Assembly (NCBI GenBank): GCA_963714015.1
Contig: OY970223.1
Location: 1,760,001-1,824,000 of the forward strand
Length of the DNA stretch: 64,000 nucleotides
Direction of reading: 5' to 3'
Source: Vulcanimicrobiota bacterium
GTDB lineage: Bacteria; Vulcanimicrobiota; Vulcanimicrobiia; Vulcanimicrobiales; Vulcanimicrobiaceae
Shown: positions 49,733 through 63,261 of the stretch, piece by piece
Layout of the letters: each line of letters starts with the position of its first letter
Position numbering within the stretch: position 1 is the first letter of the stretch
Notes under the pieces: model-generated
Seen by the model: the letters and a program-made list of their open reading frames with translations, nothing else
Told to the model about the DNA's origin: nothing
Database searches by the model: none
Program-made: the position numbers and the translations under genes

Positions 49733-49805
49733 TTAAGTAGCAAGCTTCAAGCGGGTATAGTCAGGGCGCCGGGTGTGGATTGGAACGAAGGAGTTAGAGC
49801 AGACC

Positions 49806-52304
49806 ATGTCAATGTGGGAACCGTTCACCGAGCGAGCGCGCCGGAGCATCGTTCTGGCGCAAGAAGAGGCGCAGCGTCTCGGTAACAACTACATCGGGAC
49901 CGAGCACATTCTGCTCGGAATCATCTCCGAAGGCGAAAGCCTTGCGGCCAAAGTCCTCGAGACGCTGGGCGTGAATCTCGCGAAGGTTCGCCAAGAGGTC
50001 GAGGCCATCGTCGGACGCGGCGGACAAACGGTTCAGCAAGAGATGGTATTCACTCCCCGCGCAAAACGCGTCATCGAACTGGCTTTCGAAGAAGCACGCC
50101 AGCTGAATCACAACTACATCGGTACGGAACATCTGCTCCTCGGACTAATTCGTGAAGGGGAAGGCGTCGCGGCGCGCGTTCTGACCAATCTGGGCGTCGA
50201 CCCGGCGAAGGTGCGCGTTCAAACCACGTCGCTCTTAGGCGCCGAAGGTCAGCCGCCGGCTCCCAAAGGCAAGAGCAAGACGCCGACCCTTGACGCGTAT
50301 GGCCGCGATCTCACGCAGCTCGCGCGGGAGGCCAAACTCGACCCCGTCATCGGCCGCAGCAGCGAAATAGAGCGCGTCATTCAAATTCTCTCGCGGCGCA
50401 CCAAGAACAATCCGGCGCTCATCGGCGAACCGGGCGTGGGAAAGACGGCGATAGCCGAAGGTTTGGCGCAGCGCGTCATCAAGGGCGACATCCCCGAGCC
50501 GCTGCGCGACAAGCGGGTCATCACGCTCGACTTGGCCGGACTTGTCGCGGGCACCAAGTATCGCGGCGAGTTTGAGGAGCGCATGAAGCGCGTCATGGAC
50601 GAGATCCGCGGCGCTGCCGGCGAGATTATTCTGTTCATCGACGAATTGCACACACTCGTGGGAGCCGGTGCCGCCGAAGGCGCGATCGACGCCAGCAACA
50701 TCATCAAACCGGCGCTCGCACGCGGCGAACTGCAATGCATCGGCGCGACGACGCTCAACGAGTTCCGCAAGCATATCGAAAAAGACTCGGCGCTCGAGCG
50801 GCGCTTCCAGCCAGTCATGGTGGGAGAGCCCAGCGTCGAGGAGACGATCGAGATCCTCAAGGGTCTGCGCGACCGCTACGAAGCGCACCACAAAGTGCAG
50901 ATAACCGATGCCGCGCTGGCGGCAGCCGCCAAACTCGGCGACCGGTATATCACGGATCGCTTCCTGCCCGACAAGGCCGTCGATCTGATCGACGAAGCAG
51001 CTTCGCGCGTTCGTCTGCAAGCAACACTGCCGCCTCCGGAGATTCGGGAGATCGACTCGCAACTGCGGAAGATCATCGCAGAAAAAGAAGCCGTCGTGAA
51101 GGCTCAGGAGTTCGATAAGGCCGCTTCGCTGCGCGACCGCGAGGAGAAGATTCGCCTGGAGAAGGCCCGCCTGGAAAACGAGTGGCAAGAGAAGCGCGCG
51201 CAGAGCGACAAGATCGTCAAAGTCACCGAAGAGGACGTTGCGTACATCGTTTCTTCCTGGACGAAGATTCCGGTCAGCCGGCTTGCCCAAGCGGAGACGG
51301 AGAAGCTGCTCAACATGGCCGACTCGCTGCACAAGCGCGTGGTTGGGCAGGAGGAAGCGGTCAACGTCATCGTCCGCGCCATCCGGCGCTCCCGCGCCGG
51401 TCTGAAAAATCCGAGCCGTCCCATCGGTTCGTTCATGTTCCTCGGGCCGACCGGCGTCGGAAAGACCGAAGTCGCGCGCAGCGTTGCAGAGTTCCTGTTC
51501 GATGATTCGGATTCGATGATTCGCATCGACATGTCGGAGTACATGGAAAAGTACGCCGTTTCACGTTTGGTCGGCGCGCCTCCGGGATACGTCGGTTACG
51601 AGGAAGGCGGTCAGCTCACCGAGGCGGTGCGGCGCCGTCCGTATTCGGTCGTGCTGCTGGACGAAGTCGAGAAAGCGCATCCGGACGTCTTCAACCTGCT
51701 GCTCCAGGTGCTCGACGATGGGCGATTGACCGATTCCCAAGGGCGCCAGGTCGACTTCAAAAACACCGTGATCGTCATGACGTCGAACGTCGGCGCCACC
51801 GGTATGACGACGACTACGGACATCGGTTTCCGCACGAGCAAGACCGAAAACGAAGACGAGTCGCGCCAGTACGAGCGCATGAAGAACAAAGTGCTGGAGG
51901 AAGTCAAGCACACGTTCCGGCCGGAGTTCGTCAACCGCTTGGACGAGATTGTGGTCTTCCATCAGCTGACGCGTCCGCAGATCGAGCAGATCGTCGGACT
52001 GGAACTCGAGAAAGTCATGCGCGAAGTGAAAGCGCAGGAGATGAGCCTCGAGGTAACTGACGAGGCCAAGGCGCTTCTGGCGAAAAAGGGCTGGGATCCG
52101 CAGTACGGCGCGCGTCCGCTGCGCCGCGCTATACAGCGCGAAGTCGAAGACGAGCTGGCCGAGGAGATGCTTCGCGGTACGTTCGGTGCCGGCGATCGCA
52201 TCTTGGGCGAAATCGACCCGGACAATCCGGAGAAACTGCGCTACAGCAAGGTTCCCAACGTGGAACCGCCGCCGCAGCGGGAAGCCGAACACGCCACTTC
52301 GTAG
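49806..52304 (+). CDS. clpC: ATP-dependent Clp protease ATPase ClpC
   Basis: Two Clp-N repeats, [11 protein letters not shown] coiled coil, [11 protein letters not shown] loop; AAGGAG RBS. Confidence 0.96.
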
Positions 52305-55311: not shown

Positions 55312-56313
55312 TTGGTAATGGAACGCACGAATGAACCCAAAATCGTCCTGCTCGTACGGCTTCTGAACGCCATCGACGAGGGGCGCTTCTCTTTCGAGCA
55401 ACTCAAGGATCGCATCTCCGAAGGCGAGCATCGGCCGAGCACGCGAAGCCTCCGGCGGTATTTGGCGGTCCTCGCCGATGCCGGCTTCCCGTGGTACTTC
55501 GATCGGGCGACGAACACGTACCGGTTCTCCGGCGGGTACAGCCTCAAGAGGCTGGAGTCGAGCAACAGCGAGCTGTTCGGGCTTGTGGCGCTGCGCGCCA
55601 TCAGCGCGAGCCTCGGCGGCGCCATCGGTACCTACGTCGATGAGGTAACGGATAAGATGGTCGGCTCGGCCGGCCGCGGCGTAAAGGAGCGCTTGAACAC
55701 CGCTCCATCGGTAGCATTCCGCCTGAGCGAGATTCGTCTGGACGAACAAGGCGAGCGCGTTTTCAGCCAACTGTCGGCAGCCGAGCGCAGTTCCCGGAGC
55801 GTAGCCTTCAGCTATGAGGACAAGGAAGGTCACCGCAGCAAGCGAGTCGCCGATCCGTACGGGTTCATCCTGAGCGGCGGGCGCGTGTACTGCGTTGCAT
55901 TCGACCACGACCGGCGCGACAAACGCACGTTTGCCGTCGACAGCATGAGCGACCTCAACGTGCTCGCGCAGACGTTCACGAAACCAAGCAGTTTCAGCAT
56001 CGAGGACTTTGCCTCCAGTTCGATCAGCGGCGTGCTGCACAGCGAGAAGATGCAAGAGGTTCGGGTGCGGTTTTTGCCTCGCGTCGCCAAAGCCGCTGCC
56101 GCCGCAAATGTCGTCGCCGATCGCAGCGTGCAACGATTGCAGGACGGCTCGGTCGAGATTACCTATCACGTTGCGGACCTCGACGAACTTTGCCGCTGGA
56201 TCCTGAGTTGGGGTCCGCAAGCGGAGATCGTCTCCCCTGCGGCCGCGCGCGATCGCGTGCACATGCTGATCGCCCAAATCGCCGCGAAGTACGAGTTGCC
56301 CGTCTCGAAGTAG
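55312..56313 (+). CDS. HTH-WYL-WCX transcriptional regulator (PafB/C, DriD-like)
   Basis: STRSLRRYLAVL HTH; RVADPYG..YCVAFD..RTFAVDSM WYL domain; WILSWGPQAEIVSP WCX domain. Confidence 0.92.
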   Translation: MVMERTNEPKIVLLVRLLNAIDEGRFSFEQLKDRISEGEHRPSTRSLRRYLAVLADAGFPWYFDRATNTYRFSGGYSLKRLESSNSELFGLVALRAISASLGGAIGTYVDEVTDKMVGSAGRGVKERLNTAPSVAFRLSEIRLDEQGERVFSQLSAAERSSRSVAFSYEDKEGHRSKRVADPYGFILSGGRVYCVAFDHDRRDKRTFAVDSMSDLNVLAQTFTKPSSFSIEDFASSSISGVLHSEKMQEVRVRFLPRVAKAAAAANVVADRSVQRLQDGSVEITYHVADLDELCRWILSWGPQAEIVSPAAARDRVHMLIAQIAAKYELPVSK

Positions 56314-56348
56314 CGTCGGCCCGCGCTTCATGGTTTGATCGGGCGCCC

Positions 56349-56389
56349 GAAAACGAAAACCCCGGGGAGTATTTCGTCCCCGGGGTTTC
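56349..56389 (-). terminator. Intrinsic terminator of ncRNA copy 1 (may also stop the convergent WYL mRNA)
   Basis: 12-bp stem AAACCCCGGGGA/TCCCCGGGGTTT followed on minus strand by U-rich UUUUCGUUUUC. Confidence 0.85.
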
Positions 56390-56557
56390 GACGTTTGCTC
56401 GGCAGTTTTGGTTCGTGCCTGTTTGGCTCCGGGTGAGAAGCCCTACTGACACGACTGCCGGTTAAGATCTCGCACTCCGGAAACCGACTCTCATCTGCTC
56501 CATCTGCGTGCTCGATCGCGGCTCCACGTCGCCGCGCTTCAACTTTTGCTTGAAGTG
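56349..56557 (-). ncRNA. Putative structured ncRNA, copy 1 (~205 nt, family not recognised)
   Basis: Bounded by its own promoter and terminator; shares motifs and stems with copy 2. Confidence 0.7.
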
Positions 56558-56562
56558 TTTGC

Positions 56563-56591
56563 ATGGTAGCAAATGCAGATTGCCATCGCAA
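56563..56591 (-). promoter_or_regulatory. Sigma70 promoter of ncRNA copy 1
   Basis: TTGCGA-N17-TACCAT with extended -10 TG. Confidence 0.75.
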
Positions 56592-56604
56592 GACCATAAG
56601 CGGC

Positions 56605-56689
56605 TCATTCACAAGCTATTCGCAAGAAACCGGACTTATTCACGTTTTATTCGAAGTTCGCGTAATGTGAATGCGGGGCGTGTGGAAAA
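56605..56689. promoter_or_regulatory. DnaA-box-like 9-mer cluster upstream of copy 1 promoter
   Basis: TCATTCACA 56605, CTATTCGCA 56616, TTATTCACG 56636, TTATTCGAA 56647; reverse TTTTCCACA at 56681. Confidence 0.5.
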
Positions 56690-56720
56690 CGAAAATCCCG
56701 GACGAAGTCCGGGATTCTCG
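56685..56720 (-). terminator. Intrinsic terminator of ncRNA copy 2
   Basis: AATCCCGGAC/GTCCGGGATT stem, then UUUUCGUUUUC on minus strand. Confidence 0.85.
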
Positions 56721-56884
56721 ACGTATTCACTCATCTTGTTTCGCCTGTTTGGCTTCCGTGAAGAAGCCCTACTGACGCTACGGACGGTTCGACCGTTCCA
56801 CTCGGATCGCCGACGTGCGACTGCATCGTCAACATGGTCCGGTCACGACGATACGCTCATCGCACTTCGCTGTTATACGAAGTG
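56685..56884 (-). ncRNA. Putative structured ncRNA, copy 2 (~200 nt, family not recognised)
   Basis: Same layout as copy 1: 5' hairpin CACUUCG/CGAAGUG, conserved core, terminator. Confidence 0.7.
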
Positions 56885-56889
56885 TTTGC

Positions 56890-56918
56890 ATGGTATCACC
56901 GGGCAAAAGTCGTAGCAA
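56890..56918 (-). promoter_or_regulatory. Sigma70 promoter of ncRNA copy 2
   Basis: TTGCTA-N17-TACCAT with extended -10 TG. Confidence 0.75.
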
Positions 56919-56931
56919 GGGGAGGCCGCGT

Positions 56932-57001
56932 GTATGCACAGCGTTTCCACAAGAATCTGCGGTTATACACAGTGGTCCAATCGTTATGCTCATTTTCCAC
57001 C
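56932..57001. promoter_or_regulatory. DnaA-box-like 9-mer cluster upstream of copy 2 promoter
   Basis: GTATGCACA 56932, GTTTCCACA 56943, TTATACACA 56963 (perfect TTWTNCACA), TTATGCTCA 56984, TTTTCCACC 56993. Confidence 0.55.
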
Positions 57002-57003
57002 GA

Positions 57004-57492
57004 ATGAACGGGGTGAATGTGAACCTACTTTTTGCCGCCGTGCTGCTCGCGCAAAGCATGTTTTCCGGCTTGCCGATCGACGGAATCCGCTGCGATGCCT
57101 CGGAAGGAGTGGCCGAGCATGTCCACACGCATTTACAGCTTTTCAATCGGGGTCATGCCGTCACCGTGCCGGCCGACATCGGCATTCCGCTCGGCGCCGG
57201 CTGCCTGTATTGGCTCCATACGCACGCGACCGACGGGCTGATCCACATCGAAGCGCCGGTCAGCAAACCGTTCACACTCGGTCAGTTCTTCGACGTGTGG
57301 GGCGATACGCTCAGCCGTACTCAGGCCAGCAGCGTGCGCGCTTCAAAAGGGCGCACTCTGCGCGTCACCGTCAACGGCAAAATATGGAGCGGCAACCCCC
57401 GCTCCATTCCGCTGCGCGATCGGGAAGAGATCGTAATTCAAAACGGTCCGCCGTATTCTTTGGGCCACGCAGCGGACTGGTCCAAGATGTAA
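57004..57492 (+). CDS. Secreted His-rich hypothetical protein (possible metal binding); start uncertain
   Basis: Signal peptide; HVHTHL and CLYWLHTHATDGLIHIEAP. Confidence 0.7.
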   Translation: MNGVNVNLLFAAVLLAQSMFSGLPIDGIRCDASEGVAEHVHTHLQLFNRGHAVTVPADIGIPLGAGCLYWLHTHATDGLIHIEAPVSKPFTLGQFFDVWGDTLSRTQASSVRASKGRTLRVTVNGKIWSGNPRSIPLRDREEIVIQNGPPYSLGHAADWSKM

Positions 57493-57540: not shown

Positions 57541-59106
57541 ATGACTATCGCCGCCCTGCCTACAATCGATCTCGACGGAAGACGCCTGTCCTTGGAAGCC
57601 ATCCGCGACATCGCCGAAGAGGGGGCGCCGGTACGGATCACGAGCGATGCCCGGGCTCGGGTCGCCTCGGCGCGCCGGCTCGTCGACGAGAAATTCGGGA
57701 TCGGCGATGCCATCTACGGTGTAACGACCGGATTCGGCCGCCTTGCGAATGTGCAGATAGACCCAAAAGACGCGGCTCAGCTGCAACTGAACCTCGTGCG
57801 CAGTCATGCCGCCGGCACCGGCGAGCCGTTGCCCAGAGATTTCGTTCGCGCCGCCGGCGTGCTGCGAGCCAGTTCGCTTGCTGCCGGACATTCCGGAATC
57901 AAGGAGTCGACGCTCGACCTGCTCGTCGAGCTGCTCAATCGCGGCGTCACTCCGGTCGTTCCGCGGCAAGGATCGGTCGGCGCCAGCGGTGACCTTGCTC
58001 CGCTCGCCCACATGACGCTCACGCTCATCGGTGAAGGCGAAGCGACGTTCCGCGGCGAGCGGATGCCGAGCGCTCGCGCGCTGCATCTGGCGGGACTGCA
58101 GCCGATCGAACTGGGCGCGAAGGAAGGTTTGGCGCTCGTCAACGGCACCGAAGTCATGACCGGAATCGCCGCGCTCTGCGTCCTTCGTGCGGAGCGGTTG
58201 ATGGCCGCCGCGGACGTCATCGGGGCAATGGCACTCGAAGCGTTCTTGGGAACCGATCGCGTCTTCGATCGGCGCATCAACGCGCTCCGTCCGCACCCGG
58301 GGCAAGCTCGAGTTGCCGACAATTTGCGCGTGCTGCTCGAAGGTTCCGAGATCATGGAATCTCATCGCGAGTGCGGCCGCGTTCAAGATCCGTATTCGTA
58401 CCGGTGCATCCCGGTGGTACACGGCACCGTGCGTGACGCGGCGCAGCATTCGCGCAAAGTCGTCGAAATCGAAGCCGTCTCCGTGACCGACAACCCGCTG
58501 GTCTTTCCCGAGGACGGCGAATTCCTGACGGGCGGAAACTTTCACGGACAACCGGTCGCGCTCGCAAGCGATCTGTTGAAGATCGCGATGGCGGAACTTG
58601 CGGCGATAAGCGAGCGCCGTTTGTATCTGCTGCTCAACGCCGAAGAGCGCGGGCTGCCGCTTTTTTTGACAGGGCGTTCCGGGTTGCAGTCGGGATTGAT
58701 GATCGTGCAGTACACGTCGGCTGCGATGGTGTCGGAGAATAAAGGTTTAGCGTGGCCGAACAGCGTCGATTCGATTCCGACGTCGGCCGGACAAGAGGAC
58801 CACGTCAGCATGGGAATGACGGCGGCGATCAATTTGGATCGCGTGCTGCAGAATGTCGAAGGATCGCTCGCCTGCGAACTGCTCGGCGCCTTGACCGCAA
58901 CGGACATTCGCCGGCCGCTGAAGTCCGGCCGCGGGACGCAGGCCGCTCACGCCGTTGCGCGCCGGCGCATCGCGCCGTGGACCGAAGACCGGGTTCCGGC
59001 TCCCGACATCGAGGCTGCGCGAGAACTGATACGCAGCGGGGAGCTCGGTGCGCGCGGCGGAAGATGCGATAGGAATTTCATTGATTGGGAGTGCTGCCTA
59101 AGATGA
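57541..59106 (+). CDS. hutH: Histidine ammonia-lyase (extreme C-terminus probably frameshifted near 59047)
   Basis: [20 protein letters not shown] (MIO-forming ASG), [20 protein letters not shown]. Confidence 0.95.
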
Positions 59107-60770
59107 GTTCGAGTACGGTTGCAAGCGGTCCGCGCCTCGTTCGCGCGCCTAGAGGAACGCAGCTGAGCTGTCAAGGCTGGCCGCAAGAAGCGGCGCTGCG
59201 TATGCTGATGAACAACTTGGATCCTGCCGTTGCGGAAAAGCCGGACGATCTGGTCGTTTACGGCGGCAACGGCCGCGCGGCGCGTTCGTGGGAAGCCTTC
59301 GATGCTATTGTTCGAACGCTCCGGCGGTTGAAAAACAACGAGACGCTGATCGTGCAGAGCGGCAAGCCCGTAGCCGTATGGAAGACGCACGAGCGCGCAC
59401 CGCGCGTGCTGATCGCGAATTCCAACTTGGTGCCGAAGTGGGGGGATTGGAAAATCTTCCGCGCTTTGGAAGCGCAAGGGCTGACGATGTACGGGCAGAT
59501 GACGGCCGGATCGTGGATATACATCGGCACGCAAGGCATCGTTCAAGGCACGTACGAGACGTTTGCCGAGCTTGCGCGCCGGCACTTCGGCGGGACGCTG
59601 AAAGGCCGCGTCTGCCTGACGGCAGGCATCGGCGGCATGGGCGGCGCGCAGCCGCTGGCCATCACGATGAACGAGGGAATCGCGATCGTCGTCGACGTCG
59701 ATCGCGCGCGCTTGGAACGGCGTAAGGAACTGCGCTATTTGGACGTGGTTGCCGATTCGCGCGACGACGCATTGGCATTGGCCGAGGAATCTCGCCGCGC
59801 CGGAAAAGCGCTCTCGGTCGGCTATGAAGGCAACGCCGCGCAGGAGTTTCCGGCACTGTACGACATCGGATTTCGGCCGGATGCCGTGACCGATCAGACG
59901 TCGGCGCACGATATGATCGACGGGTACGTGCCGCTGGGTCTTACGCTCGAAGAAGCGGAGTTGCTGCGCCGCACCGATCCCGAGGATTACGAGAAGCGCG
60001 GTCTTGCGAGCGTGGCCAAGCACGTGCAAGCGATGCTCGACTTTCAGCGCGCCGGCGCAGTGGTTTTTGATTACGGCAATAACATCCGCGCGCAAGCGCA
60101 GCGCGCCGGAGTGAACGACGCATTCGACTTTCCCGGATTCGTACCGGCCTTCATCCGGCCGCTGTTCTGCAAAGGCAGCGGACCATTCCGGTTTGCCGCG
60201 CTCTCGGGTGAGGAAGCCGATATCGCGCGATGCGACGACGAGCTGCTCGCCCTCTTCCCTCATGACGAACATCTGCGCCGCTGGATCACGCTCGCGAGGG
60301 AACGGGTGGCATTTCAAGGTTTGCCTGCGCGCATATGCTGGCTCGGATTCGGCGATCGCGCAAAAGCGGGGCTGCGTTTCAACGAACTCGTGCGCAGAGG
60401 AGAGCTGCGCGCGCCCATCGTCATCGGGCGCGATCACTTGGATACGGGGAGCGTTGCTTCGCCATACCGTGAAACCGAAGCAATGAAAGACGGCAGCGAC
60501 GCTATCGCCGATTGGCCGATCTTGAATGCGCTGCTGAACACGGCCGCCGGCGCACACTGGGTCTCGGTTCACCACGGAGGAGGCGTCGGCATCGGCTACA
60601 GTATCCATGCCGGCATGGTGGTAGTCGCCGACGGCAGCCAGGACGCACGGGAGCGGCTCGAGTGCGTCCTTACGACGGATTGCGGAATGGGCGTCGTTCG
60701 CCACGCCGATGCGGGATACGAGCTCGCAGCCGAAACGGCGGACGAAAAAGGCATCGATTGGCGTCTCTAA
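59103..60770 (+). CDS. hutU: Urocanate hydratase
   Basis: [38 protein letters not shown]. Confidence 0.97.
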
Positions 60771-61978
60771 TCCGGGCGAAGACGCTCGTTACCAATACCG
60801 GAAGCCTAAAGCAAAACGGCCTGACGTTCGCCGATCTCGGAACGTTCGAAGACGGGGCACTGCTCGTGGACGGCGGCAAAGTCGTACGGGCGGGGACTCG
60901 TCACGGGGTTGAAGCGGGCCTGAGAGCGACGGGCGATCCGGATATTCTGGATTTCCAGGATTGCGTCGTCGTTCCGGGATTCGTCGATGCGCACTCGCAC
61001 CCACTGTTTGCCGGAGATCGCGAGCCCGATTTCGCCGCGCGTCAGCGCGGCGAGCCGCCGCCGCTCGGCATGCTCTACACCGTGGAGCAGACGCGCAAAG
61101 CACTCGAGCACGAAAACCGTTTTTGGGACAAAGTACGCGCGCGGCTGATGCTTATCGCGGCGCACGGCACTACGACGCTCGAAACCAAAACCGGGTACGC
61201 GCTGCACGGTCCCGGCGAGGCGCAGTTGCTGCGCATGATCGACGCGAACAAGGACGCTCCGCAGTTGCCGCGTCTGGTTGCGACGTTCTTGGGCGCGCAC
61301 GCGCTTCCGCCGGAATTTCGCAACGAAGTCGACTACGTCGACTACTTGATCGACCAATGCCTGCCGGTCGCTAAAGCCGACGGTGCGGTGTATGCCGACG
61401 CGTTTTGCGAGCCCGGCTTCTTTTCGCCGGAACAGACGAAACGCTATCTCGAAGCAGCGCGCGCGGCTGGACTGCGCCTTCGCGTGCATTGTGATGAGAT
61501 GGCCTTCGGTGGGGCGGCCGAGATGGCGGCAGCCGTTGGAGTCGATGCTGCCGACCATTGCAATTGCATCCGCCCCCAGGACGTTGCCGCAATCGTCGCG
61601 CGCGGAATCGTTACGGTCGCATGTCCGGCGACCATCGCATACTTGGATCTGCAGCGGCGGGCGCCGGTTCGCGCGCTGCTGGAGTCAGGCGGCGACGTTG
61701 CGCTCGCGAGCGATTACAATCCCGGAACATCGCCCTGCTTCAACCTTCAAACGGTAGCGTACTTTGGAAGGCGCTTGTTCGGGCTTTCTGCCGCTGAGGC
61801 GCTTTACGGCGTGACCGTTGCAGCGGCAAGGTCGCTCCGCGTCGATGCAGGATCGCTTCGAGTCGGGGCGAGCGCGGACTTTGCCGTTCTGGAGATCGAG
61901 TCTCCGGACGAGTTCGGCTGGCAATTCGGCGGCAATTTGGCGCGCGCGGTTTTTCGTAAAGGCGTGCGCGCTGCGTGA
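60758..61978 (+). CDS. hutI: Imidazolonepropionase
   Basis: [34 protein letters not shown]. Confidence 0.9.
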
Positions 61979-63261
61979 AGGTTATCGTCGAGTGCGCTCG
62001 AGCACTGGTCCAAGGAGAAGAACGGCGCGATTTCGCCTTCGCGATCGACGGCGATCGCATCGCGGCAATCGATTCGCCTGAGGCGCTCAAAAAGCGGTAT
62101 ACCGATGCTGAGTTGCGCGCGTACGGCGAGCGCGTCGCCGTCCTCCCCGGATTCGTCAACGGCCATAGCCATGCGTACCAAATTCTGATGCGGGGATGGG
62201 CCGACGATCTTGCGTTCGACCGGTGGCGCAGCGATGCGCTGTACAAAGTCGTCCCGCAACTCACGCCCGAGCAGATCTATTGGACCTTCCGGCTCGCTTT
62301 CGACGAAATGCTGGCGGCCGGCATTACGACCGTTGCCGAGTTTTTCTATTTGAACGGAGCCGGAAATGCGCACGCGCGCGAAGCGATACGGGCGGCCGGC
62401 GACAGCGGCATTCGCCTGGTTTTTGCGCGCGCATGGATGGATGCCGGCTATGCCCCGGCGGCATTCCGCGAAACGATCGACCAAGCGCGCGAGCGCACGG
62501 AAGAGCTGATCGCGGAATTTCCGGGCGTGCATGTGTGCGTCGCGCCGCACTCGCTGCATGCCGCGTCGCCTGAAATGATCCGTGAAGCGTCCGCGTTTGC
62601 AGCGGCGCACGATTGCATGATGCACGTTCACGTTGCGGAGGCGGCGTACGAAGGCGAGGAGACCGTGCGGCGGTTCGGCCTGAGCCCTATCCGGCTGCTG
62701 CAAGATCTGGATGCGCTGAACGAGCGCACGATCGCGATCCACGCGATCTACGTCGACGGCGATGAGAAGCAGTTGCTTGCGCAATCCGGCGCTCGCGTCA
62801 TTCACAATCCGATGACGAATCAGTATTTGGGCGACGGGATCTGCGACGTTATCGCGTTGCGCGCCCTTGGGGTGCCCGTCGGCCTGGGCACCGACGCGGA
62901 TGTTAGTCCGTCCGTGATCGACGAGATGCGCGCCGCATCGCTGCTGCAGAAGATTGCGCGGCTGGACGGCAGCGCGCTCGGTGCGCATGCTGCATTCAAC
63001 CTGGGAACGTCGGATGGGGCTCGCGCCCTGCGCGCCGGCGCCGGAGACTTTTGCGTCGGGGCTTTTGCCGACTACGTCGCAATCGATCTGGTCGCTGCCG
63101 ATCCCTGGGTCCCGCTCTGCAATCAAATCGTATACCGCTCGCAAAGCCGTGACGTGCGCGAAACCTACGTGGGAGGCAAACTCGCGTGGTCCCGCGATTG
63201 CGAGCAACCACCCGAAGCGCTGGAAGCCGTTCGCGCACTCTTACCGCTGCTGACGCTCTGA
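61975..63261 (+). CDS. hutF: Formimidoylglutamate deiminase-like amidohydrolase
   Basis: PGFVNGHSHAYQ, VAEFFY, APHSL, HVHVAE, GLGTD; position in hut operon. Confidence 0.7.
   Translation: MKVIVECARALVQGEERRDFAFAIDGDRIAAIDSPEALKKRYTDAELRAYGERVAVLPGFVNGHSHAYQILMRGWADDLAFDRWRSDALYKVVPQLTPEQIYWTFRLAFDEMLAAGITTVAEFFYLNGAGNAHAREAIRAAGDSGIRLVFARAWMDAGYAPAAFRETIDQARERTEELIAEFPGVHVCVAPHSLHAASPEMIREASAFAAAHDCMMHVHVAEAAYEGEETVRRFGLSPIRLLQDLDALNERTIAIHAIYVDGDEKQLLAQSGARVIHNPMTNQYLGDGICDVIALRALGVPVGLGTDADVSPSVIDEMRAASLLQKIARLDGSALGAHAAFNLGTSDGARALRAGAGDFCVGAFADYVAIDLVAADPWVPLCNQIVYRSQSRDVRETYVGGKLAWSRDCEQPPEALEAVRALLPLLTL

Follow-up and report, generated by a model that had tools for sequence, protein, structure and literature searches.

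Two Homologous Units Lie in Tandem Between Syntenic Genes

The window, i.e., the whole 64,000-nucleotide stretch of DNA that was analyzed, carries two related units of approximately 205 nt on the minus strand, each composed of a promoter, a 5' hairpin, a 34-nt core, and a GC hairpin followed by a U-tail (Table 1). The upstream copy is termed unit A (type A) and the downstream copy unit B (type B). Their parts follow an identical order; in pairwise alignment, the middles differ in sequence and are nearly equal in length. The 64-kb window contains exactly two instances of the stretch TACCATGCAAACACTTC (56552-56568 and 56879-56895, minus strand), with none expected from shuffled sequence, and exact pairs of matches were likewise found in the window for the tail TTTTCGTTTTC (56349-56359 and 56685-56695) and the core start GTCAGTAGGGCTTCT (56436-56450 and 56762-56776). 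A first-pass annotation, made from the sequence, had described a promoter, a 17-nt block, stems, a core, and a tail as common to both units. These correspondences are exact and far beyond chance (none in shuffles), all of its coordinates hold, and our recount of the core by eye returned the same identity that it had claimed, 29 of 34 positions. Both units also fold more stably than shuffled sequences, at -87.5 kcal/mol for unit A (z = -5.2) and -92.0 kcal/mol for unit B (z = -5.5), with 0 of 200 shuffles as good in either case. The loop of the 5' hairpin is 54% A, compared to 25% over the whole RNA.

Table 1. Coordinates of the two units, their parts, and the neighboring genes in the window.
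Feature	Position	Strand	Details
Convergent neighbor	55312..56313	+	WYL + WCX domain transcription regulator; Pfam WYL E 5e-17, WCX E 1e-15
Unit B RNA gene (type B, downstream copy)	56347..56558	-	R1 139.4 bits, E 2e-44
Unit B ends	predicted start ~56556-56558; U-tail end at 56349	-	
Unit B terminator	56349..56388	-	GC hairpin + U-tail; 35 nt from convergent gene's stop codon
Unit B pseudoknot, 3' strand	56389..56394	-	ACGUCG (6-bp helix CGACGU/ACGUCG)
Unit B core	56417..56450	-	placed by pairwise alignment, covariation, exact core-start match
Unit B pseudoknot, 5' strand	56526..56531	-	CGACGU
Unit B P1	56537..56555	-	5' hairpin CUUCAA / UUGAAG
Unit B promoter	56563..56591	-	-35 TTGCGA 56591-56586, spacer 17 nt, TG 56571-56570, -10 TACCAT 56568-56563
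Unit B repeat array	56605..56644	-	CGTGAATAA 56644-56636, TGCGAATAG 56624-56616, TGTGAATGA 56613-56605
Unit A RNA gene (type A, upstream copy)	56683..56885	-	R1 200.2 bits, E 1e-64, full model
Unit A ends	predicted start ~56883-56885; U-tail end at 56685	-	
Unit A terminator	56685..56718	-	GC stem 13-14 bp, then UUUUCGUUUUC
Unit A pseudoknot, 3' strand	56721..56726	-	AUACGU, 2 nt ahead of terminator stem
Unit A core	56743..56776	-	GUCAGUAGG, hairpin, then CAAACAGGC; internal-loop bases invariant
Unit A pseudoknot, 5' strand	56851..56856	-	P2 loop GCGUAU
Unit A P1	56863..56884	-	5' hairpin CACUUCG / CGAAGUG, A-rich loop
Unit A promoter	56890..56918	-	-35 TTGCTA 56918-56913, spacer 17 nt, TG 56898-56897, -10 TACCAT 56895-56890
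Unit A repeat array	56932..56971	-	box 1 TGTGTATAA 56971-56963, box 2 TGTGGAAAC 56951-56943, box 3 TGTGCATAC 56940-56932
Two further box-like 9-mers	56984..57001	-	GGTGGAAAA, TGAGCATAA; adjoin start of divergent gene
Divergent neighbor	57004..57492	+	162-aa protein, signal-peptide-like N-terminus

The WYL-regulator gene and the secreted-protein gene that flank the units are both syntenic in relatives, and the conserved position of the RNA between them had gone unremarked in the first-pass annotation. The 162-aa divergent protein has no Pfam or NCBIfam match; its nearest Atlas cluster carries no family name, and the commonest phylum there is Vulcanimicrobiota. Same-family genomes that are negative for our covariance model weaken a functional link between the RNA and the WYL gene: all five tested retain a WYL orthologue (49-53% identity), and in two of these (G051 and G154) the secreted-protein gene follows the WYL gene and leaves no space for the RNA.

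Covariation Supports a Four-Armed Fold With a Pseudoknot

Covariation was assessed over 92 distinct copies. The proposed fold pairs 90.5% of cells in this set, compared to 81.0 ± 0.3% after shuffling, and 0 of 500 shuffles reached 90.5%, a significance that these statistics overstate since the copies are kin. Sliding the partner strand lowers the paired cells to 30.6-46.6%, and double-sided changes are present at 39 of the 50 pairs. Helix 1 (P1), for whose stem a compensatory change between the two units had been claimed at first pass, is paired in 98.7% of cells; the corresponding values are 96.3% for helix 8, the core hairpin (double-sided changes in eight of 12 pairs), and 96.6% for helix 10, the terminator (nine of nine pairs). 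Covariation among homologues, a check that the same annotation had named, is strong by these measures. On the opposite strand, the core's invariant U-G pair would become a C-A mismatch, which fixes the sense of the RNA.

The fold comprises the arms P1, P2, a long irregular P3, and P4, which carries the invariant internal-loop core GUCAGUAGG...CAAACAGGC. The loop of the second hairpin (P2) additionally forms a 6-bp pseudoknot with bases just 5' of the terminator. The mean best helix between these strands is 5.27, compared to 4.21 ± 0.11 in 200 shuffles (largest 4.68), and compensatory swaps are seen as ACGCAU/AUGCGU, GCGUGC/GCAUGU, CGUAG/CUACG, UGUAG/CUACA, CGUAA/UUACG, and GUAUC/GAUAC. This pseudoknot had been missed at first pass.

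Each Unit Has Its Own Conserved Promoter and Intrinsic Terminator

A pattern-free MAFFT alignment of the regions upstream of 90 distinct units yielded the promoter consensus CTTGc-N17-gTGnTACcAT. The TTGCnA-N17-TACCAT promoter with extended -10 that had been proposed for the window is found in both units and conserved over the 90, such that the units carry their own promoter, as expected of an independent small-RNA gene. They likewise carry their own intrinsic terminator, i.e., a covarying GC stem followed by a U-rich tail; that of unit B may act in both directions. A simple promoter and terminator scanner flagged neither promoters nor terminators here, as TACCAT and TTGCnA fall below its hexamer thresholds and one terminator has an 8-nt loop and an interrupted U-run. 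The assignments therefore rest on conservation and covariation.

Assembled contigs, a type of data that gives neither strand nor ends, lie wholly inside 56709-56869 of unit A; they come from three RNA libraries of three studies and are 90-95% alike. Word depth of these relatives' contigs reached 822 and 3570 in one run, bearing in mind that RNA libraries can carry DNA. Three RNA runs, which contained 0.05-0.07 of the sampled words, gave cover only at 56709-56869 and 56413-56452; these are relatives' contigs, so the gaps are uninformative. Transcription of the units is weakly supported by these matches, and copies from relatives appear very abundant in a soil metatranscriptome.

The RNA Occurs Across One Family of Eremiobacterota

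The 3.56-Mb genome contains two copies and relatives contain one to three. Covariance model R1, run with stricter filters, matched 52 of 71 sampled same-family genomes (Baltobacteraceae, Eremiobacterota) and none of 79 genomes from 20 other families of the phylum; blastn gave matches in 13 of 24 genomes of the family and in none of 16 others. Such a covariance-model search of related genomes had been suggested at first pass, as had a check for many dispersed genomic copies. A REP/MITE-like dispersed repeat is ruled out by the presence of two copies here and one to three in the 52 relatives.

Among 185,579 species' genomes, a pattern scan picked up 39 loci. Their titles assign 35 to Eremiobacterota lineages, two to 'uncultured bacterium', and two to contigs of one 'Acidiferrales' MAG, both of which group in the tree beside both copies of one Baltobacteraceae genome. 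All 34 metagenome loci examined have a full-length model match. A phage or plasmid link was rejected, given that neither of two viral-contig pattern hits has a model match.

Type-B units from several genera group together in a single clade (SH-aLRT 99), indicating that the two paralogues were already retained before the divergence of those genera. The core is absent from a 136-nt variant seen in one genome and is therefore not universal; this variant keeps the boxes described below, promoter, P1, P2, pseudoknot, and terminator. We also observed, in other genomes, a third paralogue type that the first-pass annotation had missed, lying at leader distance from a transporter gene. At 10 loci of this type, the RNA is followed on its own strand, at a distance of 38-51 nt, by the start of an OPT oligopeptide-transporter gene, a gap that leaves no space for a separate promoter of the gene. 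The U-tails of these OPT-linked copies are weaker (CUUUGUCC and similar), and such copies may have a cis-acting leader role. At one locus (L059 = L106), a glyoxalase-family gene lies approximately 85 nt downstream of the RNA.

The Units Match No Known RNA Class

Searches of the 64-kb window with Rfam 15 gave no matches at gathering score. At E-values up to 10, the region returned only noise, the best match being 18.9 bits on a terminator hairpin against a 32-bit threshold. Across 15 homologous loci nothing recurred; BjrC68 alone was hit twice, at 3' ends only, and its scores (25.4 and 19.4 bits) stayed below the threshold of 39 bits. The strong Rfam match that would have removed novelty is thus missing from the window, the region, and the homologous loci. 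Judged by listing, the literature on Eremiobacterota non-coding RNA offered nothing beyond a soil co-assembly study and, in these searches, no regulatory RNA described for the phylum, and titles and abstract openings among the matches listed for DnaA boxes and DnaA-regulated small RNAs included no such RNA.

Individual classes were also considered. For 6S RNA, the sole RF00013 match lies elsewhere (G000 780882-781068; 30.1 bits, a weak candidate), and the 5' end of our units forms its own covarying hairpin, in contrast to 6S RNA, a rod whose 5' and 3' ends pair and whose center forms a bubble. Bacterial SRP RNA is accounted for by a full-length RF00169 match at G000 2525463-2525561 (74 bits). 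Both csrA and hfq (95 bits) are present in the genome; however, a CsrA sponge of the CsrB/RsmZ type was rejected because GGA is not enriched (3.59 per unit, compared to 4.75 ± 0.18 in shuffled sequences; 92 units). A small protein gene was rejected as well: the longest ORFs are mostly 20-39 aa, the 72 ORFs starting 5' of the core split 34/21/17 by frame relative to it, and single-base indels fall inside the most conserved stretch. No in-frame ORF is kept among the copies, in line with the earlier statement that the two units share none. A same-strand gene directly downstream, as in riboswitches and leaders, is absent from the window, where the next gene is convergent; it was seen only in other genomes, at copies of the third paralogue type.

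The units very probably represent a real, independent family of structured RNA, which is undescribed and, as far as sampled, confined to Baltobacteraceae (Eremiobacterota). The proposal of the first-pass annotation that these are paralogous structured small RNAs, possibly of an undescribed family, is supported, and no refuting test that was run overturned it.

DnaA-Box-Like Repeats Precede the Promoters

Three same-sense repeats, missed at first pass, lie ahead of each promoter at about -90, -70, and -59. In unit A all three boxes are in the sense of the RNA, and the spacings between box starts (20 nt and 11 nt) are identical in units A and B. With the two further 9-mers, up to five same-sense boxes extend over approximately 115 bp to the start of the divergent gene. 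An element GGTGGAAAnnGAGGATAAC recurs, by eye, in many type-A loci.

Box 1 reads TGTGnATAA, a DnaA-box 9-mer, and matches TTATNCACA, the pattern of DnaA-box-controlled promoters; its pattern-free consensus over 90 units is tGTGnaTAAc. Position 5 is the sole degenerate position by match counts: all eight specified positions of TGTGnATAA are present in 45 of 90 units and seven of eight in a further 34, counts that are inflated by the use of best matches in small windows, a bias from which the pattern-free alignment consensus is free. Boxes 2 and 3 share the same sense across a 2-bp gap, with a start spacing of 11 nt in 83 of 90 units. Such 'double boxes' number 13 in the whole genome, with the best one located in oriC next to dnaA; the pair of unit A is among the other 12. 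One at 1,262,046 was dismissed, as it falls within a coding region and bears no RNA signature. By the relaxed pattern TGTGNAWA[AC], the unit A locus is the genome's only cluster of at least three boxes per 300 bp. The locus (1.8166 Mb) is not itself oriC: the cumulative GC skew has its minimum at ~0.64 Mb and its maximum at ~2.38 Mb, and dnaA with its boxes lies at 0.712 Mb.

Given that box 1 is a DnaA-box 9-mer and that the other two boxes, 2 bp apart, make up a double box, DnaA is the best candidate factor, and from these sequence matches we put its binding here at slightly below an even chance. Against DnaA, the sole cluster in the genome lies at this locus whereas oriC has only one relaxed box, and a dedicated factor could equally be responsible. 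Direct repeats with a period of 11 nt immediately ahead of the -35 also suit response regulators of the OmpR/PhoB type. MraZ was rejected, since the genome's own mraZ is preceded by AGTGGTG x3 with a 10-nt period, in contrast to TGTGnAnA boxes at 20/11 nt. A DriD-type WYL factor was rejected too: the DriD target is given as the palindrome ATACGAC-N7-GTCGTAT (PMC10853764), whereas type-A units have only a half-site-like (A/C)TACGAC over the -35, with the second half-site absent. This 7-mer is not enriched in the 64-kb window (eight found, 5.0 expected), and no DriD-like site precedes the WYL gene itself.

Alternative Explanations and the Preferred Model

The model that we somewhat prefer is a structured RNA that is independent and acts in trans, with the repeat array controlling its transcription. 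Minus-strand transcription of each unit would begin at the unit's own extended -10 promoter of the sigma-70 type and stop at its own intrinsic terminator. The RNA would fold into P1, P2, P3, and P4, with the pseudoknot tying the P2 loop to six bases 5' of the terminator, and would act in trans as a folded platform that binds a protein or small ligand instead of through a linear seed. Its level would be set by a factor on the three-repeat row, possibly DnaA. The folded-platform mode is modestly favored over seed pairing by the conservation pattern, its only basis: the internal loops are invariant, a pseudoknot is present, and a single-stranded seed is not clearly conserved.

Small RNAs of the classical seed-pairing kind, with or without the help of Hfq, would instead control mRNAs in trans by a short accessible stretch, with the fold serving mainly for stability. 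Consistent with this, a U-tailed terminator and an A-rich loop such as that of P1 suit Hfq binding, the genome encodes hfq, tandem 'sibling' small RNAs are common among pairing RNAs, and the core hairpin invariably has a pyrimidine-rich 5' strand (CUUCU, CUCCU, etc.), like anti-Shine-Dalgarno seeds. However, this strand is base-paired with covariation, and conservation is highest in helices, internal loops, and the pseudoknot rather than in an open stretch; we regard seed pairing as possible but unlikely. A cis-acting leader, whether ligand-sensing riboswitch or protein-dependent attenuator, would use the terminator to gate downstream genes, with the window copies orphaned or dual-use. The aptamer-like fold with its invariant internal loops, the proximity of one pseudoknot strand to the terminator stem (2-3 nt), the OPT-linked loci with their weaker U-tails, and the glyoxalase-family locus all speak for such a role. 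Yet the gene that comes next downstream is convergent both in the window and in the common single-copy arrangement, which leaves nothing for the terminator to gate; the genes that follow vary from locus to locus, and units A and B have strong stems, U-rich tails, and their own conserved promoters. A leader function for the family is very unlikely on this evidence.

It is extremely improbable that the locus is a DNA-level feature, in which initiator- or regulator-binding repeats titrate a factor or control the divergent secreted-protein gene and the 'RNA' parts are incidental. Compensatory changes keep RNA pairs, including G-U pairs and the pseudoknot, on one strand only; unit B and dispersed copies bear the same boxes with no divergent gene, and the RNA-library contigs match the body and not the boxes. 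In favor of a DNA-level feature are the genome's only relaxed-box cluster, the run of boxes to the start of the divergent gene, and one model-negative genome that keeps the box array (perfect TTATCCACA) ahead of the divergent gene beside a different ~200-nt body. Quite unlikely, too, is a broader scheme in which the family is a sensor RNA, whose invariant core and pseudoknot would bind a metabolite or protein, serving both as a stand-alone trans RNA and as a terminator-gated OPT leader, with all copies under DnaA-box arrays. If true, this would be the first small-RNA output of the replication initiator and would tie replication status to peptide and amino-acid uptake.

Should DnaA bind the array, the RNA would be a new kind of replication-initiator output; should a dedicated factor bind it, the locus would define a compact, testable regulon. 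The array is sharply defined, and the cluster at unit A is unique in the genome by the relaxed-box criterion. The family is a well-supported new one, with a fold unusually elaborate for a 200-nt bacterial RNA and paralogues retained since before genera split. Eremiobacterota (WPS-2) are abundant in soils and peat and have one cultivated species; to our knowledge, the phylum is mostly uncultured with almost no genetics. Whichever factor binds, the covariance model and the box consensus can already be used to annotate genomes of this group.

Comparison With Known Systems

The tandem arrangement recalls the 'sibling' small RNAs PrrF1/PrrF2, OmrA/OmrB, and Qrr, which are likewise adjacent paralogues, each equipped with a promoter and a terminator and retained in pairs by related taxa. 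Our units differ from these in phylum, in matching no Rfam family, and in being more structured, with four arms, a pseudoknot, and no evident open seed. They resemble the raiA motif RNA as stand-alone RNAs of approximately 200 nt with a covarying multi-helix fold, a pseudoknot, invariant loop bases, and no known function. In contrast to that motif, they reach no Rfam threshold and have a different taxonomic range; moreover, we know of no conserved upstream repeat array described for orphan structured RNAs such as the raiA motif. With transcriptional riboswitches and attenuator leaders, they share a compact conserved fold with a pseudoknot beside an intrinsic terminator and, for one paralogue type, leader distance to a gene. 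However, in the window and in the commonest arrangement the units have no same-strand downstream gene, and no ligand, antiterminator, or known aptamer class applies to them.

The array itself most resembles DnaA-controlled promoters. Double DnaA boxes are reported at purH, polA, nrdA, mioC, and DARS2 of E. coli (PMC11317965), and, as in the promoters described there, 9-mers matching the consensus and two same-sense boxes 2 bp apart lie ahead of the promoter. The differences are that the E. coli cases contrast with a host from an uncultured-phylum lineage, that box 1 stands another 20 nt upstream, that DnaA binding here is predicted, and that the product is a small RNA rather than a protein.

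Anatomy of the paired units

Units A and B are two separate, conserved promoter-to-terminator units, with their parts in identical order on the minus strand of 56200-57100. The first-pass annotation had read them as tandem paralogous RNA genes on the strength of short shared segments, and these segments were recovered: the identical 17-nt block TACCATGCAAACACTTC, the identical tail TTTTCGTTTTC and the start of the shared core, GTCAGTAGGGCTTCT, each occur in the window only at their two sites, with two matches in no shuffle. Pairwise alignment also bore out the view that ends and core are conserved and that the middle is divergent at similar length. Compared with their own shuffles, units A and B gave fold-energy z-scores of -5.2 and -5.5. 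A protein-coding reading of the units was rejected. Since a generic promoter/terminator scanner flagged neither element in the units, both assignments rest on comparative evidence. The convergent WYL gene has its stop codon 35 nt before the terminator hairpin of unit B. On the plus strand UUUCGACGUUUGC follows this hairpin, which may therefore terminate both transcripts.

Coordinates of the RNA genes, their parts and associated features
Feature	Location	Strand	Remark
Unit A	56683-56885	-	RNA gene
Unit B	56347-56558	-	RNA gene
17-nt block	56552-56568; 56879-56895	-	units B; A
Tail	56349-56359; 56685-56695	-	units B; A
Core start	56436-56450; 56762-56776	-	units B; A
Pseudoknot strands, unit A	56856-56851; 56726-56721	-	
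Pseudoknot strands, unit B	56531-56526; 56394-56389	-	CGACGU with ACGUCG
Terminator hairpin, unit B	56349-56388	-	
Double box, unit A	56951		
Clp-family AAA+ chaperone gene	49773-52304		two Clp_N repeats, UVR motif, ClpB D2-small domain
WYL+WCX regulator gene	55312-56313	+	convergent, flanks units
162-aa protein gene	57004-57492	+	divergent; signal-peptide-like N-terminus, no known family
Histidine-utilization cluster	57541-63261	+	just past divergent gene
hutH	57541-59106	+	aromatic amino-acid (histidine) ammonia-lyase
hutU	59085-60770	+	urocanase
Two amidohydrolase genes	within 57541-63261	+	one with imidazolonepropionase composite domain
dnaA (G000, this genome)	711,928-712,413	-	outside window
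dnaA-rpmH interval	G000:C1:712400-713200		likely oriC
mraZ	G000:C1 563356-563733	-	outside window
6S candidate	G000:C1:780882-781068		outside window
Variant gap in G165	L107 2475-2856		
Reduced variant in G016	L110 1331-1476		
OPT-linked type C loci	L097 (2850-3420), L099, L103, L084, L089, L024, L028, L119, L137, L120		

A covarying fold with a pseudoknot

The RNA folds into four arms supported by covariation, with an invariant core and a pseudoknot. We aligned 98 matches (92 distinct) to the covariance model R1 (alignment A4) and derived a consensus fold from these aligned sequences. Standard pairs fill 90.5% of 4473 cells, versus 81.0 ± 0.3% in 500 shuffles, none of which reached this value; these percentages lean towards structure because the copies are related to one another and had been aligned to a model that already contained 32 of the pairs. 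When the 3' partner was slid by 1-3 columns, 30.6-46.6% of cells were paired. Changes on both sides were seen in 39 of 50 pairs among the distinct copies. We argue that the consensus fold is real, given the controls with a slid partner and the variety of pair types.

Support varies along the molecule. Hairpins P1 and P2 are well supported (98.7 and 97.5% paired), and covariation was found in 4 of 4 pairs of the closing helix of the long irregular arm P3 (94.2%), 8 of 12 in the core arm P4 (96.3%), and 9 of 9 in the terminator (96.6%); the P4 base and inner P3 (68-86%) are less well aligned. Bases that do not vary cluster in P1 (CUUCG/CGAAG), the closing pairs of P2, and the internal loops of P4 (GUCAGUnGG opposite CAAACAGGC). 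The transcribed strand is fixed by a U-G pair of the core that is likewise invariant.

The pseudoknot is a new element, beyond the parts listed in the first-pass annotation. The loop of P2 (typically ACGUAU) has its complement, AUACGU, 2-3 nt 5' of the terminator stem. The longest loop-to-tail helix averages 5.27 bp across the 92 distinct copies, versus 4.21 ± 0.11 bp with the tail shuffled (200 shuffles, largest 4.68). In register-anchored counts over 89 copies, which by design score the two anchor pairs as paired, the four flanking positions pair in 83, 63, 69, and 62 copies, with swaps from AU to UA, GC, or CG. Compensatory cases include ACGCAU/AUGCGU, GCGUGC/GCAUGU, CGUAG/CUACG, UGUAG/CUACA, CGUAA/UUACG, and GUAUC/GAUAC.

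Distribution and copy number

Copy number is low, as expected of genes rather than dispersed repeats: G000, a single contig of 3.56 Mb with 61% G+C in which the window spans C1:1760001-1824000, has two copies only, and carriers among its relatives have one to three. By blastn, the element was found in 13 of 24 genomes of the same family and in none of 16 from other families. Scanning 185,579 species, each represented by one genome, with a pattern gave 39 loci, of which 35 are titled Eremiobacterota/Vulcanimicrobiota (Baltobacteraceae, Cybelea, Rubrimentiphilum) and two "uncultured bacterium." The remaining two (L042 and L048) are contigs of one MAG titled Candidatus Acidiferrales; they group in the tree beside both copies of one Baltobacteraceae genome (G111), and hence are probably mis-binned. 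With R1, built from 20 units (alignment A2), the RNA was detected in 52 of the 71 family genomes sampled and in none of 79 from 20 other families of the phylum, in a scan whose stricter Infernal filters can let weak variants escape. Full-length R1 matches were obtained for all 34 metagenome loci found with the same pattern and for neither of two viral-contig matches. One row (L012, genome G021) derives from an unpublished genome, and no claim depends on it alone. At a contig end in G160 (L104), two RNA copies, both scoring 39 bits, and two WYL-like genes (45% identity) are arranged in inverted orientation with a separation of about 1.6 kb. Either a genuine inverted duplication or an error of assembly may account for this.

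Genomic neighborhood and paralogue history

In most loci, tblastn showed the RNA accompanied by both flanking genes. Sorted by what lies within 260 nt, the 92 distinct units comprise 28 with both genes, 25 with the secreted-protein gene only, 16 with the WYL gene only, and 23 with neither. A WYL orthologue (49-53% identity) was present in all five model-negative genomes of the family tested; in two (G051 and G154) the secreted-protein gene follows it with a gap into which the RNA gene would not fit, and in G006 the secreted-protein gene is not nearby. That the flanking genes are neighbors even without the RNA weakens a functional link to it. R1 also undercounts reduced relatives of the RNA. 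G016 encodes, in the same convergent position beside the WYL gene, a variant of 136 nt (34 bits) in which boxes, promoter, P1, P2, pseudoknot, and terminator are retained and P3 and the core are missing. In G165, the 380-bp gap between the WYL and secreted-protein genes contains an array of same-sense boxes, among them a perfect TTATCCACA; a promoter-like TTGCGT-N17-TACGAT site; and a different body of about 200 nt, ending in a GC hairpin, that the model does not recognize.

A quick maximum-likelihood tree of 92 units placed the type B (downstream, WYL-proximal) units of several genera, including that of the window, in one clade (SH-aLRT 99, 16 rows) nested among type A units. The A/B duplication is thus older than the split of those genera, with both copies kept. 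Dispersed type C copies form a separate clade (support 100, 20 rows). Eight of ten second-copy loci examined had neither flanking gene. In ten loci, an OPT oligopeptide-transporter gene starts on the same strand 38-51 nt after a type C RNA; the weaker U-tails of these copies indicate that transcription from the RNA promoter probably reads through into the transporter gene. Elsewhere, copies are oriented divergently to a proline dehydrogenase gene or precede a gene of the glyoxalase family.

A conserved repeat array at the promoter

Three same-sense boxes precede each promoter in a conserved array. Pattern-free MAFFT alignment of 90 distinct upstream regions gave the consensus tGTGnaTAAc-N10-TTGTGGAnA-N2-tTGTGa...CTTGc-N17-gTGnTACcAT-N6-cACTTCG. 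Box 2 begins 20 nt after the start of box 1 in 75 of 90 units, and box 3 begins 11 nt after the start of box 2, leaving a 2-bp gap, in 83. Box 1 (T63 G89 T87 G88 N A73 T83 A88 A87) matches TGTGnATAA at all eight specified positions in 45 units and at seven in 34, counts that are flattered by choosing boxes as best matches within small windows. Its sole free position is 5, likewise free in the textbook DnaA box TTATNCACA.

Between dnaA and rpmH lie TTATCCACT, TTATCCACA, ATTTCCACA-GGG-TTGTCCACA, TGTGGAGAG, and TGTGGACGA, with a GC-skew minimum nearby; this interval, whose DnaA boxes also include TTATCCACTTATCCACA, is likely oriC. Double boxes (each at least 6/9, sum at least 14/18, gap 2-3 bp) number 13 genome-wide; the best is in oriC and the unit A pair is another. 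We infer that a repeat-binding factor would govern transcription of the RNAs, with DnaA the best candidate. The RNA locus is, however, the only cluster of at least three relaxed boxes (TGTGNAWA[AC]) per 300 bp among 129 sites genome-wide, and oriC has one such site, a pattern that a dedicated factor other than DnaA would explain equally well. An OmpR/PhoB-type response regulator also fits: the 11-nt direct-repeat period adjoins the -35 element, an arrangement that suits such regulators. MraZ was excluded, its repeats in G000 being different (three AGTGGTG, 10-nt period), and a DriD-like site is absent. The mraZ repeats themselves, AAGTGGTGC, lie just before the gene as a textbook-like MraZ operator.

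Expression and proposed function

Three RNA libraries from three studies contained 0.05-0.07 of sampled words. Their contigs (140-167 nt) are 90-95% alike at a likeness cut-off of at least 80%, and thus come from relatives; they cover 56709-56869 inside unit A and the core of unit B, and several are flanked by adapter sequence. In one soil metatranscriptome, word depth was 822 and 3570. These contigs, which give neither strand nor ends and could include DNA carry-over, are consistent with an abundant small RNA.

In the model we favor, each unit would yield a discrete minus-strand transcript of about 200 nt that acts in trans as a folded binding platform. Conservation in helices, internal loops, and pseudoknot, not in an open seed, points this way, as does the lack of a downstream gene in the common arrangement. 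An Hfq-type pairing RNA is a possible alternative, in line with the hfq gene in the genome and the A-rich P1 loop, as is a cis-acting role for the type C copies. A CsrA sponge was rejected, with 3.59 GGA motifs per unit versus 4.75 in shuffles.

Relation to known RNA families

The suggestion of an undescribed family withstood comparison with Rfam 15, which gave no match at gathering score across the whole window, only noise in the region at E up to 10, and no recurrent family over 15 homologous loci. The SRP RNA of G000 lies elsewhere in the genome (74 bits). A full-length 6S candidate outside the window (30.1 bits against a 46.4-bit threshold, E 3.7e-4) is probably the divergent 6S RNA of this genome. 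Such an RNA family was not found described in the portions of the literature covered by our search. The RNA represents a new family within a kind already known, the structured bacterial small RNAs, and is unusual among them in its DnaA-box-like promoter array and in its dual placement as stand-alone gene and leader.
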